64,000 bases of DNA, taken from the NCBI GenBank assembly GCA_000002435.2, contig CM018789.1. One strand, written 5' to 3'. This DNA is from Giardia intestinalis. Its lineage: Eukaryota. Numbering within the stretch: position 1 is the stretch's first letter; every line of letters starts with the position of its first letter. Positions 28,605 through 34,769 of the stretch are shown piece by piece. The notes under the pieces are model-generated. The model saw only the letters and a program-made list of their open reading frames with translations, ran no database searches and was not told the origin of the DNA. Position numbers and translations under genes: made by a program.

Positions 28605-30062
28605 ATGAACAGTTCCCTCCCCAGATTAGATAACTTAGCAGTCTCTAAAGAATTCTTAGAACAGCATTCTCAAACACTCTATAGCCTGCGTGCATTTCCA
28701 CCAAAAAAGGTGCGACGGGCATCAAACATGCCCGTTTCGCTGACAGGAACTTCCTTTACCCCTCGAGGAGGCTCTTGTCAAATCAGTATTCCCGAGGTTA
28801 GAAAGCTTCCTTCTCAGTTTTCTCACAAGCAAAACGAGAATTCTATTACAGACTTTGGATCTCCTCTTTTGGTAGATCTCTTTGGATATCGCTTAATTAT
28901 GGGTTCTACTGTCGAGCAAGATGTCAAGACGCCAGAATATGCTACCTCATCGCCATCTATCGGTACTGTTAGCACATGTAGTCCTATAACAGAAAAGGTC
29001 ATACTGTCTACGTATTCTCGACCTCCGTCCAGCTTCAAAGTCTCGCGTACTAGTGCGGCTCCTGTTAAATCTATTGCCATTCCCAGCCTAAACGATGCAC
29101 TTACTGGTCCCTTATCCAGTGCCAAGGCGAGACCAAACAGTGCTAGACAACTGGCGACGCCCACATCGTCACGTTCCCCCAGCCCTTCCTGCCTAAATAG
29201 AGATTTTATCCACAATAACAGAGTTTTATCTTACACTAGCCAACGATCAGTGCATACTGCGCAAGGTTTGGCTAAAGATACTATCAGCAGAGGATCATCA
29301 ATTGTTTATTCACTGGGACTTCCTCGTGAATCACCACACGCATTAGGAACGCCGCTCTATGAACTTCCGGCTCAATTCTTCCTACAAGTTAACTCTCCCC
29401 TAGGAGCGTCTCCTCCACCTAATGAATCTTGCTTAGCCACTCCGTCAATGAACACCGAAATATCACTCGTAGAAAGTCTTGGTGATCTTTCAACACATTC
29501 TATGGGGCATTCAGATGCATCTGAACCAGCTCAGTATGTCGCAGATCACGTGTTAATGGATCAGTCAGTGCACTGCAAGCGGCCCACAGCTGTTTCTCAT
29601 GCTAACCAACCTCCCACAGAAACCAAGACATCTTTTCCTTCACAGTATTCTGTACGCAAATGCACATCGGTATATTCTAATCAACCAGCAGTAGCTCCAC
29701 ACTCATCAGAAAAGGGCACGCATAACCATAATTTGAAGCCAAACTGTTCTCCAAGAAGCAAAGCTAACCAATCTTGTCCTCAAGTTAGAGAAAGGCTTAC
29801 AATATCCGGCACCCTACTTCAGAGCCATGCAACTGCACCGTCTTCGTATAGATTCAAAGTGTCTGCTTGCCAGAAAAGGGAAAGTGCGCCACTTTCTGAA
29901 AATTCACAACCGCTACAACTAGTGCCATGTTCTAGTGCAACAGAATACATCAACGAATTCTTAGATAGAAGAGGATTCTATCCGTACGTTGCTCGCTGCA
30001 CAAAAGCTGCTCATAAATCTGCAGTTGTGAGCAGACTGGCAGGATCTTCTGCATCAATCTGA
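28605..30062 (+). CDS. Hypothetical Ser/Pro-rich protein (485 aa)
   Basis: ATG start (MNSSLPRLDN). Low-complexity. Its 3' end overlaps the convergent gene 30011..31927 by ~52 bp. Confidence 0.5.
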   Translation: MNSSLPRLDNLAVSKEFLEQHSQTLYSLRAFPPKKVRRASNMPVSLTGTSFTPRGGSCQISIPEVRKLPSQFSHKQNENSITDFGSPLLVDLFGYRLIMGSTVEQDVKTPEYATSSPSIGTVSTCSPITEKVILSTYSRPPSSFKVSRTSAAPVKSIAIPSLNDALTGPLSSAKARPNSARQLATPTSSRSPSPSCLNRDFIHNNRVLSYTSQRSVHTAQGLAKDTISRGSSIVYSLGLPRESPHALGTPLYELPAQFFLQVNSPLGASPPPNESCLATPSMNTEISLVESLGDLSTHSMGHSDASEPAQYVADHVLMDQSVHCKRPTAVSHANQPPTETKTSFPSQYSVRKCTSVYSNQPAVAPHSSEKGTHNHNLKPNCSPRSKANQSCPQVRERLTISGTLLQSHATAPSSYRFKVSACQKRESAPLSENSQPLQLVPCSSATEYINEFLDRRGFYPYVARCTKAAHKSAVVSRLAGSSASI

Positions 30063-31970: not shown

Positions 31971-34769
31971 TTAAATATCAAAATCGTCGAAATCACCCGC
32001 AAAATCGTCGACGTCTTGACCTGCATCACCCTCTGCATTTGGATTGAGTGTAGCACTCTCCCCGAGATCGAAGTCGTCTTTTGTAAGCTTCTCAAACTCG
32101 TCTCCCGGGCTCTGCAATGGATTCGGCAGCGTTTCTAGGCATGGCTTAGGATCGGGAGATCCCGTCCAGCCACCAACACTTAGGTCTTCAAAATCTATTT
32201 GAGGAGATTGCATGGTGTTGGAGTTCTGCGGTTCAGTGGTCGCTGGTGCAGAGCCTTGCTTTGTTTCCACTGGTGAACCGACCAAATCAAGATCGCTAAA
32301 AGCATCCAAGGTAGTAGTGGCCACTGGTGCGGCTTCGGTTACGGAAGAGATTGGTGGCTCGTCGCCATCATCACTGGGAGGAACATCTGGTAAACGTTCT
32401 ACCAAGTCCGGTCCCCAGTGCTCTACTGGATCTTCTACCTCAGTTTTCACTAGCTTCGGAGGACTCTGGATCTCTTGGACCCGTTCATGCATTTGCAAAG
32501 GCTCTATGGGCTCCGCATCTTGAACTGGTAGTTTCTCACTAACAGGAGGTATCTGCTCTACCCGCTCCTTAGGAACAACTCTCATCTGCTGCACATTAGG
32601 TGTCCCAACTAGATCATCATCGTCATCATTATCCGTCAAGAGTTTGTTGCGTACTCTATTCTCTTGGGCTTCATCATCCGCTCCTTCCTCGTCAATTCTT
32701 ATTGAGTGCGGATCAAAGTCGAACGAGTCCTCATCTTCGATGGGTATATTGCGCTGAATCTCGAGAACTGTCTCTTCAAGGATGACAAACCTATTGTTAA
32801 CGGCCTCCTTGTATCCGTTATAATCATCCTGAATGGCCGCAATGTGCTCTCCTTGATCCCTTACCTGATCTTTGAGGGCACTCACATCACCTTTAACCTC
32901 ACTAACAATAGCCATAATTGCCTCGGAATCTCCCAGCATTGCTGCACTCGCACGCTCTTCACCGTAATTCTTTTCTAACTCTTGGACCTCTGCGGCCAGC
33001 TTCGCCGCCTGAGTCTCAACTTCAGCCATCCTCCCGTCCATCTCCAGAACTTGGTTTCGGATGAGATCTGCCTGCTGTGCCATATCGGCAGCAGCGTGGA
33101 TCTTTTCGAGCAGCTCCGGATCCAGAGTACCACTTGCTAAGGACTCAGCAGCTTGAAGCTCTTCCTGCCTCTCCTTTAGTTCCTCCACTGCGTCGTAGAT
33201 ATTTTTATAATTTGCATCGTTAGCCTCCATCGCTGTTTTTAGGGAGTCCAGATCATCGCCCTGCCTGGCCTTCACTTCCTTCAGAGTCTCCAGCTCTTTT
33301 TTAATCGTTTCTAGTGCTTCATCTGTATTCTTGGTCGCTGTTTTCATCTCTCCTAGTTCGCGCAATAGCTCATGTGATGGTTGTGGAGCGCTCATAGCAA
33401 GCACATTTGGCGCATACGTAGTATTGATGTTGAATCCCGTCATCGAGCCTTGAAGGGCATCCTGTGCCGGAACGAGCTTTCTAGCAGTGTGCTTGTACAG
33501 CTTAAAGAGGTCATCTGTTAGTTGTACGACCCTATCGGTTCCCATAGCTAGTTCCTGAGTGTTGATGAAGAAGGCGATTTCCTCAGTGTTCCACTTGCAG
33601 GCACACTTTCCGATCATGTCTGAATGCATGAACTTCTCAATCTTCTTCTTGGAGATATACTGCAGGGTATTTGTGCTATAGTCGTGATAGTACAAGGAGC
33701 CACTAGGAAGGAACGGAAATACCCCGCCGTTCCGTACTATCTCAAAGGCGTAGGTTCCGTAGGTAACTGTGTTCGAGGAAGCATTCAGGTCCTCAGTCGT
33801 CATGCTCTCTGTGGCTTGCGTGGTTGAGCTCGCCGAAGCCGCCAGGTCGACAGCAAAAAGGTGCCAAAGAGTCTCCCTGGTTACTTGATTGTATATGATG
33901 TCCAAAAACAACGAGTCCCGAGAGATTCTAATAAACGTGATGTCTGAGGACATGTGCAGGATGTTCTGGTGCATGGTATGTTTGGCCGTCTCGGGTTGCA
34001 GGAGGTAGGGGTAAATGAAGTGCCCGCTATCATCGCTAGGGGCATACTGAATAGGGGTATCTTCATCTTTAAAGTACATCTTGTATCCTTTGTCCAAATC
34101 TAATGCTATCTCTAACATGAGGCTCTTTGAGTTTATGTAGCTGATAAAGAGCTTGTTGGCGTCCACATTGGGCCTAATAGAAAAGATCTGGTTTCTGCGC
34201 TTAATGGGAAGGATGCACGTGCGTACAAGGCTCTCTGCAGCCTTTGGAGACTGCAGGTCGATGATCGCATAGCCGTAGTACATGTGCATGACCTTCTCAG
34301 GCCTGGAGTGGTCGTTCTGGTGGAAATATGAGAGAGTATCTGCTTGTCTGCGTGTGGTGAGGCCAGCATAGACGAAGTATTCCCTTCCATCCTTTTCACT
34401 CTTTGCAATGGCACCAATAGCCGGTATGAATGTTCCAACGCGAATCTTATTCTTCACACGGTAGGCGACACGACCACTTGTATCTGCCGGTTCCTGCTCG
34501 TAGTCATAGATTGCATGCCCCGAAAATCGAACAATTCTGGACATATCAGATGCAACAAACAGAAGAAGACCCTTGAAAGAGAAAACAGGCTCCTGATTCA
34601 CAAGAGAGTACAGGAGATAGGATGACGAGAGATAATCGCGCGCCTGGGAGCCCGGGTCAGGTTTCTGTGTGAGCACCATTACATCCGTGTTCGTAGGGTG
34701 GATGGCAACGATCTTCTCAGATGCATCGAGCTGGACTGGTTGCAGGTTTTGCGCGCTCACAAGGCCCAT
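31971..34769 (-). CDS. Coiled-coil protein, member B of the same paralogous family (tandem with member A); long acidic/coiled-coil C-terminus
   Basis: True ATG at 34769 (MGLVSAQNLQ). Shares the N-terminal domain motifs listed for 30011..31927. Extended coiled coil ('LETLKEVKARQGDDLDSLKTAMEANDANYKNIYDAVEELKERQEELQAAE...'). Acidic tail ('DDFAGDFDDFDI'). Confidence 0.7.
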   Translation of the reverse strand: MGLVSAQNLQPVQLDASEKIVAIHPTNTDVMVLTQKPDPGSQARDYLSSSYLLYSLVNQEPVFSFKGLLLFVASDMSRIVRFSGHAIYDYEQEPADTSGRVAYRVKNKIRVGTFIPAIGAIAKSEKDGREYFVYAGLTTRRQADTLSYFHQNDHSRPEKVMHMYYGYAIIDLQSPKAAESLVRTCILPIKRRNQIFSIRPNVDANKLFISYINSKSLMLEIALDLDKGYKMYFKDEDTPIQYAPSDDSGHFIYPYLLQPETAKHTMHQNILHMSSDITFIRISRDSLFLDIIYNQVTRETLWHLFAVDLAASASSTTQATESMTTEDLNASSNTVTYGTYAFEIVRNGGVFPFLPSGSLYYHDYSTNTLQYISKKKIEKFMHSDMIGKCACKWNTEEIAFFINTQELAMGTDRVVQLTDDLFKLYKHTARKLVPAQDALQGSMTGFNINTTYAPNVLAMSAPQPSHELLRELGEMKTATKNTDEALETIKKELETLKEVKARQGDDLDSLKTAMEANDANYKNIYDAVEELKERQEELQAAESLASGTLDPELLEKIHAAADMAQQADLIRNQVLEMDGRMAEVETQAAKLAAEVQELEKNYGEERASAAMLGDSEAIMAIVSEVKGDVSALKDQVRDQGEHIAAIQDDYNGYKEAVNNRFVILEETVLEIQRNIPIEDEDSFDFDPHSIRIDEEGADDEAQENRVRNKLLTDNDDDDDLVGTPNVQQMRVVPKERVEQIPPVSEKLPVQDAEPIEPLQMHERVQEIQSPPKLVKTEVEDPVEHWGPDLVERLPDVPPSDDGDEPPISSVTEAAPVATTTLDAFSDLDLVGSPVETKQGSAPATTEPQNSNTMQSPQIDFEDLSVGGWTGSPDPKPCLETLPNPLQSPGDEFEKLTKDDFDLGESATLNPNAEGDAGQDVDDFAGDFDDFDI

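Follow-up and report, generated by a model that had tools for sequence, protein, structure and literature searches.

The DNA analysed here is a stretch of 64,000 nucleotides from Giardia intestinalis (contig CM018789.1 of GenBank assembly GCA_000002435.2; hereafter the window), and its subject is a family of three genes, termed A, B and C, that lie on the minus strand (Table 1). The encoded proteins are identical in sequence to database entries, which identifies the source as G. intestinalis WB (ATCC 50803). B and A stand in tandem, with B 43 bp upstream of the A start codon, and C is located 13 kb from this pair. Short A/T-rich stretches precede the start codons of all three genes; the window as a whole has a GC content of ~47% and gives no sign of introns. 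Intact orthologs are present in other Giardia assemblages (79% identity for A, 98% for B and 61% for C), which shows that A, B and C are real genes.

The original prediction, made from the DNA letters, described a three-member family with a common N-terminal domain followed by a coiled coil. The family relationship is upheld by pairwise BLASTP comparison, in which the N-terminal ~340-380 residues match significantly in all three pairs (A-B, E = 6e-23, 24% identity; B-C, E = 3e-17, 22% identity; A-C, E = 2e-12, 24% identity). A tblastn search of the whole window with the N-terminal domains found no member besides these three. The strongest of the sequence blocks originally quoted, PIKR(K/R)(N/S), is present in all three proteins (at residue 185 of A, 188 of B and 181 of C), whereas 'G(A/T)FIP' and 'H(V/L)(Y/F)..DL' hold for A and B only, the equivalents in C being NTCTP and HVYEEDSE. 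On extending the alignment to seven family members, including one from Giardia muris, P-I-K is invariant in 7/7 and the patch takes the form P-I-K-(R/Q)-(K/R) at around residues 185-190. Invariant positions are scattered through both the three-paralog and the seven-member alignments. Judged from these comparisons, A, B and C are genuine but old paralogs.

Table 1. Positions in the window of genes A, B and C and of the segments recognized or predicted in their products.
Feature	Position	Strand	Remarks
Gene A, GL50803_8854 (XP_001707885)	30011-31927	minus	638 residues; exact sequence match; annotated hypothetical
A, predicted beta-propeller, residues 1-353	30869-31927	minus
A, helical linker, residues 354-429	30641-30868	minus	Model helices 354-367, 375-383 and 402-413; aligns with B helices
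A, heptad-rich long helices (putative coiled-coil rod), residues 430-558	30254-30640	minus	Model helices 431-467, 473-499 and 501-558
A, predicted disordered acidic tail, residues 559-638	30014-30253	minus	pLDDT < 40
Gene B, GL50803_8855/ESP8855 (XP_001707884)	31971-34769	minus	932 residues; exact sequence match; annotated 'Flagellar exit site protein'
B, predicted beta-propeller, residues 1-373	33651-34769	minus	~23-25 strands, six or seven blades; near-invariant P-I-K-R-R patch at 188-192
B, helical linker then variable stretch, residues 374-464	33378-33650	minus	19% identity to G. muris
B, long heptad-rich coiled-coil region, residues 465-675	32745-33377	minus	Heptad score; weak coiled-coil family matches
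B, acidic, Pro-rich, probably disordered tail, residues 676-932 (257 residues)	31974-32744	minus	Composition; G. muris alignment
B, C-terminal acidic-Phe motifs, residues 891-932	31974-32099	minus	KDDFDLGESAT ... DFDDFDI-COOH
Gene C, GL50803_16679 (XP_001707873)	47759-49540	minus	593 residues; exact sequence match; annotated hypothetical
C, homolog of the A/B propeller domain, residues 1-342	48515-49540	minus	BLASTP to A and B; family alignment
C, short conserved heptad segment, residues 465-524	47969-48148	minus	Heptad score
C, conserved hydrophobic helix LAVTLYRIVVDLTGLAVKLV then basic C-terminal tail, residues 545-593	47762-47908	minus

As anticipated, the N-terminal domain could not be assigned to a known family by sequence. 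Pfam scans of the three full-length proteins gave no match in this region and scans of the seven N-terminal domains returned nothing even at E <= 10, and single-sequence and profile searches against PDB sequences were likewise without a match to it. An AlphaFold2 model of residues 1-432 of B, calculated from the seven-sequence alignment [mean predicted local distance difference test (pLDDT) score of 74.5; predicted template-modelling score (pTM) of 0.69], contains ~23-25 beta-strands up to residue 372, followed by helices at 374-387, 395-406 and 419-431. A second, independent prediction for full-length A has the same succession of strands at residues 15-353 (pLDDT mostly 65-84). A Foldseek comparison with the PDB returned generic propellers only, with low TM-scores. 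In structural comparisons with known propellers the B model scored 10.1 against Lis1/PAC1, 9.8 against BBS9, 9.8 against Vps15 and 9.7 against Nup43, and the A model scored 10.3 against BBS9, 10.2 against Ski8 and 10.0 against Nup43, with ~200 residues aligned in each case. The models thus indicate that the N-terminal domain is a beta-propeller that has no detectable sequence relatives, the fold being predicted rather than solved, and in these comparisons no known propeller family stands out as the closest. The strand count points to a propeller that probably departs from the regular form and has six or seven blades, possibly six. It is the best-conserved part of the protein: B and its G. muris counterpart are 41% identical here, compared with 19-27% outside it.

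Two familiar kinds of propeller differ from that of the family. WD40 repeats (Pfam PF00400 and relatives) were found neither in the seven N-terminal domains at E <= 10 nor in the full-length proteins, and only ~200 residues of the WD40 propellers of Lis1/PAC1, Vps15, Nup43 and Ski8 superpose on the domain. The PROPPIN proteins Hsv2 and WIPI4 (the Atg18/Hsv2/WIPI type) are among the Foldseek matches, a likeness that we regard as analogy only; the phosphoinositide-binding FRRG motif that marks the seven-bladed PROPPIN propellers is absent from the family, which instead carries the invariant basic patch PIK(R/Q)(K/R) at about residue 188 of ~370.

The regions following the propeller were analysed with a heptad score calibrated on shuffled sequences. 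This score supports the expected coiled coil after the globular domain in all three proteins, and in A the helices of the model support it as well. Residues 430-572 of A score above the 99th percentile of the shuffles and give many weak matches to Pfam coiled-coil families. In C a second heptad-rich segment (residues 545-581) accompanies the one at 465-524, which is 73-82% identical among C orthologs and is conserved as well as or better than the propeller in the assemblage-B-type orthologs. In the common layout the predicted propeller at the N terminus leads through a short linker with helices into a coiled-coil rod, an arrangement typical of oligomeric scaffolds.

The C-terminal halves differ, with acidic tails in A and B and a hydrophobic helix and basic tail in C. 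The acidic tail originally noticed in B is confirmed (residues 676-932; Asp plus Glu up to 34%). It opens with the motif IPIEDEDSFDFDPHSI, which is common to A and G. muris B; just past the coil A, B and G. muris B carry FDESF.DD..SI or DSFDFDPHSI. In A there are two acidic-Phe motifs, FDESF at residue 564 and SDMEF at ~603-607, both of which are kept in A orthologs. The last 42 residues of B are 48% identical to G. muris B compared with 27% in the rest of the tail, and KD[DE]F..GESAT and the terminal FDDFD are kept. Known adaptor-ear motifs (FxDxF, DPF/W and aromatic-G-[PDE]-aromatic) do not fit the acidic-Phe tail motifs cleanly, and no claim is made on this point. The terminal helix of C and its basic tail may form a membrane-binding or tail-anchor-like element. 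Across four orthologs the Kyte-Doolittle 19-residue mean of the helix is 1.54-1.77, a borderline value for a membrane span that does not exceed the values of buried beta-strands, and a transmembrane helix is therefore kept as a possibility only.

A propeller followed by a coiled coil recalls other systems. BBS2, BBS7 and BBS9 are three paralogs in which a non-WD40 beta-propeller precedes a pairing coiled coil and which act at the ciliary base, and A, B and C could be imagined as very diverged BBSome subunits of this type retooled as a flagellar gate. We consider this very unlikely. The BBS2, BBS7 and PHTB1 families gave no Pfam match, and a PDB profile search including BBS9 and other BBSome chains was empty at E <= 10. 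The GAE, platform and alpha-helical domains that follow the coil in BBS-type proteins do not occur in A, B or C; after the coil A is predicted to be disordered (pLDDT < 40), B has an acidic Pro-rich low-complexity tail and C has only ~70 residues.

The architecture is also that of Nup82/Nup88, which combine an N-terminal propeller with a C-terminal coiled coil that bundles with a phenylalanine-glycine (FG) nucleoporin. The three proteins would then be divergent nucleoporins of this type, placed at nuclear pores or reused in a 'ciliary pore complex', and a gene for an FG-repeat and coiled-coil protein lies between B and C (45531-46511). The coil of B gives a weak match (E = 7e-4) to positions 539-700 of the 702-position Pfam Nup88 profile (PF10168), but at 17.9 bits this lies below the 24.4-bit cut-off and is confined to the coiled coil, and neither A nor C, nor G. 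muris B or any other ortholog, gives it. We attribute this non-recurring match to noise from the coiled coil. The propeller has no preferential structural match to Nup82/Nup88, which are not its closest neighbours, and A and B localize to flagellar rather than nuclear structures (see below). The likeness is that of a propeller and a coiled coil in a pore-forming scaffold, and we regard actual membership as extremely improbable. Taken together with a coronin-like resemblance considered below, the similarities to BBS9, Nup88 and coronin are weak and do not support membership of any of these families.

The distribution of the family is narrow. A HMMER profile of the three paralogs was run exhaustively against 1.84 billion cluster-representative proteins, and at E <= 1e-10 only Giardia sequences were recovered. 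The seven matches comprised three orthologs, two fragments, one G. muris protein and one spurious match, the repeat protein P0011 (E = 1.4e-6, aligned in six short stretches). All relatives found belong to Giardia and come from its assemblages A, B and E, apart from one B-type gene of G. muris. Word-indexed searches of 5.8 billion proteins found no relatives outside Giardia. For metagenome scanning the seven-sequence alignment offered no conserved stretch that could be used, and a scan with the alignment of B and G. muris B matched 249 stretches, 0 of which encode a relative. The G. muris protein (TNJ27786.1; 855 residues) is the ortholog of B (30% identity over the full length and 41% in the N-terminal domain) and bears the same annotation, 'Flagellar exit site protein'. 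A and C are at about equal distance from G. intestinalis B and from G. muris B, which suggests that the duplications are older than the split between the two species. The family is thus lineage-specific, as had been proposed, but the accompanying suggestion that it is expanding does not hold: paralogs that are only 22-24% identical and that appear to have duplicated before the split indicate an old family. The G. muris B gene itself (CM016927.1, locus L001, 10001-12568) is flanked by genes for DNA polymerase B, a Myb-domain protein and an ankyrin-repeat protein, unlike its G. intestinalis counterpart.

Giardia has eight flagella, the axonemes of which are naked in the cytoplasm and become membrane-bound only from the flagellar pore, the ring at which each axoneme reaches the plasma membrane and continues as a flagellum enclosed by membrane. 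For two of the paralogs, localization to this structure has been published. A ring of ESP8855 (B) marks each axoneme exit site, and its signal is absent where axonemes are too short to reach the cortex, from which it was concluded that the site of exit is determined by contact between axoneme and membrane (PMC7521801). GL50803_8854 (A) was found in the actin interactome, localizes to the marginal plate as well as to flagellar pores and is in complex with GlActin by reciprocal co-immunoprecipitation (PMC8552679); independently, a 2026 atlas lists it as 'marginal plate, flagellar pores' (PMC13322205). The flagellar pores have been described as a diffusion barrier and as the injection site for intraflagellar transport (IFT) in an organism that lacks transition-zone proteins, and the identification of pore-complex components has been called for (PMC6992383). 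The family is therefore not uncharacterized, as it had been termed, with respect to A and B, although nothing was found on C; the cytoskeletal role that had been suspected is matched by the published cytoskeletal association of A and B. In the searchable literature ESP8855 is treated as a lone hypothetical marker, and its paralogs and propeller/coiled-coil layout are not described there. Within the incomplete sample of literature that was consulted, no publication was found on the paralogy or fold of 8854, 8855 and 16679, and the main text of a proteomics paper from the Hehl laboratory mentions none of them.

With two of the three paralogs at one unusual structure, one of them forming rings, and a layout typical of scaffolds, the best-supported interpretation is that A, B and C are an old, Giardia-restricted scaffold family belonging to the flagellar pore (axoneme exit-site) complex. 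We assign this a probability of about 0.65. C would presumably belong to the same structure as A and B. In such a complex the coiled coils would drive homo- or hetero-oligomerization into a ring-shaped lattice around the axoneme and the propellers would serve as docking platforms for partners or membrane. The basic patch PIK(R/Q)(K/R), which is invariant, could be where an acidic partner or lipid is bound, and the tail motifs could bring in other factors, for example actin-associated or trafficking proteins.

Several observations weigh against a pore scaffold. A is enriched more strongly at the marginal plate than at the pores, so the family is not exclusive to pores. For C (GL50803_16679), the sampled literature contained no publication naming the gene and no localization. 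In G. muris the B type seems to be the sole member: neither an A-like nor a C-like gene was found within 10 kb on either side of its B ortholog or in the exhaustive protein search, which implies that A and C either are not universally required or were missed. Co-assembly of the paralogs and oligomerization through the rods are steps that we infer, and what we suggest for the PIKR patch and for the acidic-Phe motifs is conjectural.

Some of these points would fit a different account, in which the paralogs have a common ancestry but separate functions, with B as the sole dedicated exit-site protein, A mainly a marginal-plate protein and C acting elsewhere; to speak of a flagellar pore family would then over-generalize. 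The low identity of the paralogs, their unlike C-terminal halves (acidic tails in A and B as against the hydrophobic helix and basic tail of C), the annotation of A primarily as a marginal-plate protein (PMC13322205) and the retention of only the B type in G. muris are all consistent with such divergence. However, A was placed at the flagellar pores in both of the independent studies (PMC8552679, PMC13322205), the post-coil acidic-Phe motif is common to A and B, and for the marginal plate itself an association with the anterior axonemes is known (PMC8552679). On balance we judge separate functions to be unlikely.

The actin association of A, together with its propeller and C-terminal coiled coil, also suggests a comparison with coronin. 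No canonical actin-binding proteins are known from Giardia, a gap that a coronin-like family would fill. The propeller would bind actin filaments and the coil would oligomerize, so that the signal at the pores would reflect local enrichment of actin. The coronin signature domains (Pfam DUF1899 and WD40_4) with a short C-terminal coil were not found in the family by Pfam scans, the rod of the family is much longer and is followed by an acidic tail, and the link between A and actin was seen by co-immunoprecipitation. We consider coronin-like action quite unlikely.

The scaffold interpretation can be extended, although only as a doubtful proposal. The paralogs might co-assemble through their coiled coils into the core of the pore ring, a lineage-specific gate that replaces the transition zone in acting as a diffusion barrier, staging IFT and specifying the exit site. 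The helix and basic tail of C might anchor this ring to the membrane, and the propellers might derive from a BBS2/7/9-type (protocoatomer-related) lineage.

Recognition of 8855 (a ring marker), 8854 (a pore protein) and 16679 (unstudied) as paralogs provides a concrete candidate core for the flagellar pore complex, nominates 16679 as its third candidate component and defines domains and motifs that can be mutated (the PIKR patch, the coiled coil and the C-terminal DFDDFD motif). The family would offer a handle on how a flagellar gate is built in the absence of the usual transition-zone proteins and would be an example of a compartment gate that a lineage-specific family has built from a generic scaffold architecture. 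Relative to the literature found, what is new is the family relationship, its restriction to Giardia, the predicted propeller/coiled-coil architecture with its linear motifs and the candidacy of 16679. The gene annotations and the localization of A and B were already known and the fold is of a common kind, so the finding is a modest one.

Among the genes around the family are those for ankyrin-repeat NEK kinases, for a CXXC protein rich in cysteine and for cysteine-protease-like paralogs. One NEK-type kinase, which carries ankyrin repeats at its C-terminal end (34853-36526, plus strand), is divergently oriented from B across an 83-bp intergenic region; judging from adjacent accessions it is probably GL50803_8856, which is listed as 'plasma membrane NEK kinase GK173' in the supplement of PMC13322205. 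A second kinase with ankyrin-repeat-like sequence is encoded at 39747-42224 (minus strand). Two oppositely oriented cysteine-protease-like paralogs, cathepsin-B-like as read from their sequence (26686-28407, minus strand; 36537-38057, plus strand), contain the arms of a perfect 242-nucleotide inverted repeat (27560-27801 and 37095-37336), and a block of ~80 residues is identical between the two proteins. The arms enclose an unnamed open reading frame (ORF; 28605-30062), A, B and the NEK kinase next to B. The repeat looks like the product of recent gene conversion, and through it the 9.3-kb segment could become inverted.

Giardia nucleoporins are poorly catalogued. The FG-repeat gene between B and C (plus strand) encodes 326 residues. 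The N-terminal half, of A/T/G/S-rich sequence, abounds in FG-type repeats (FTFG, GFTFG, FNFG and FGG), and the C-terminal half is helical and heptad-like; this is the layout of a Nup62/Nsp1-type FG nucleoporin, with no significant match to Pfam or PDB sequences. The adjacent gene (46537-47751, plus strand) encodes a strongly charged, coiled-coil-like protein of 404 residues with a Lys/Gly-rich end, KKKKKGSKGKKGSKGKKGK, and no Pfam match. Immediately upstream of C (49575-50633, minus strand) lies a gene for a cysteine-rich protein of 352 residues with many CxxC/CxC motifs, a C-terminal hydrophobic segment and no Pfam match, which resembles the high-cysteine membrane proteins or variant-specific surface protein (VSP)-like proteins of Giardia. 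A peak in GC content (0.56 at 52001-54000, the window as a whole having ~0.47) lies over the 5' part of a long ORF (50792-53353, minus strand); this part is Arg/Pro/Ala-rich and opens at TTG, which suggests that the true start codon is probably further downstream.

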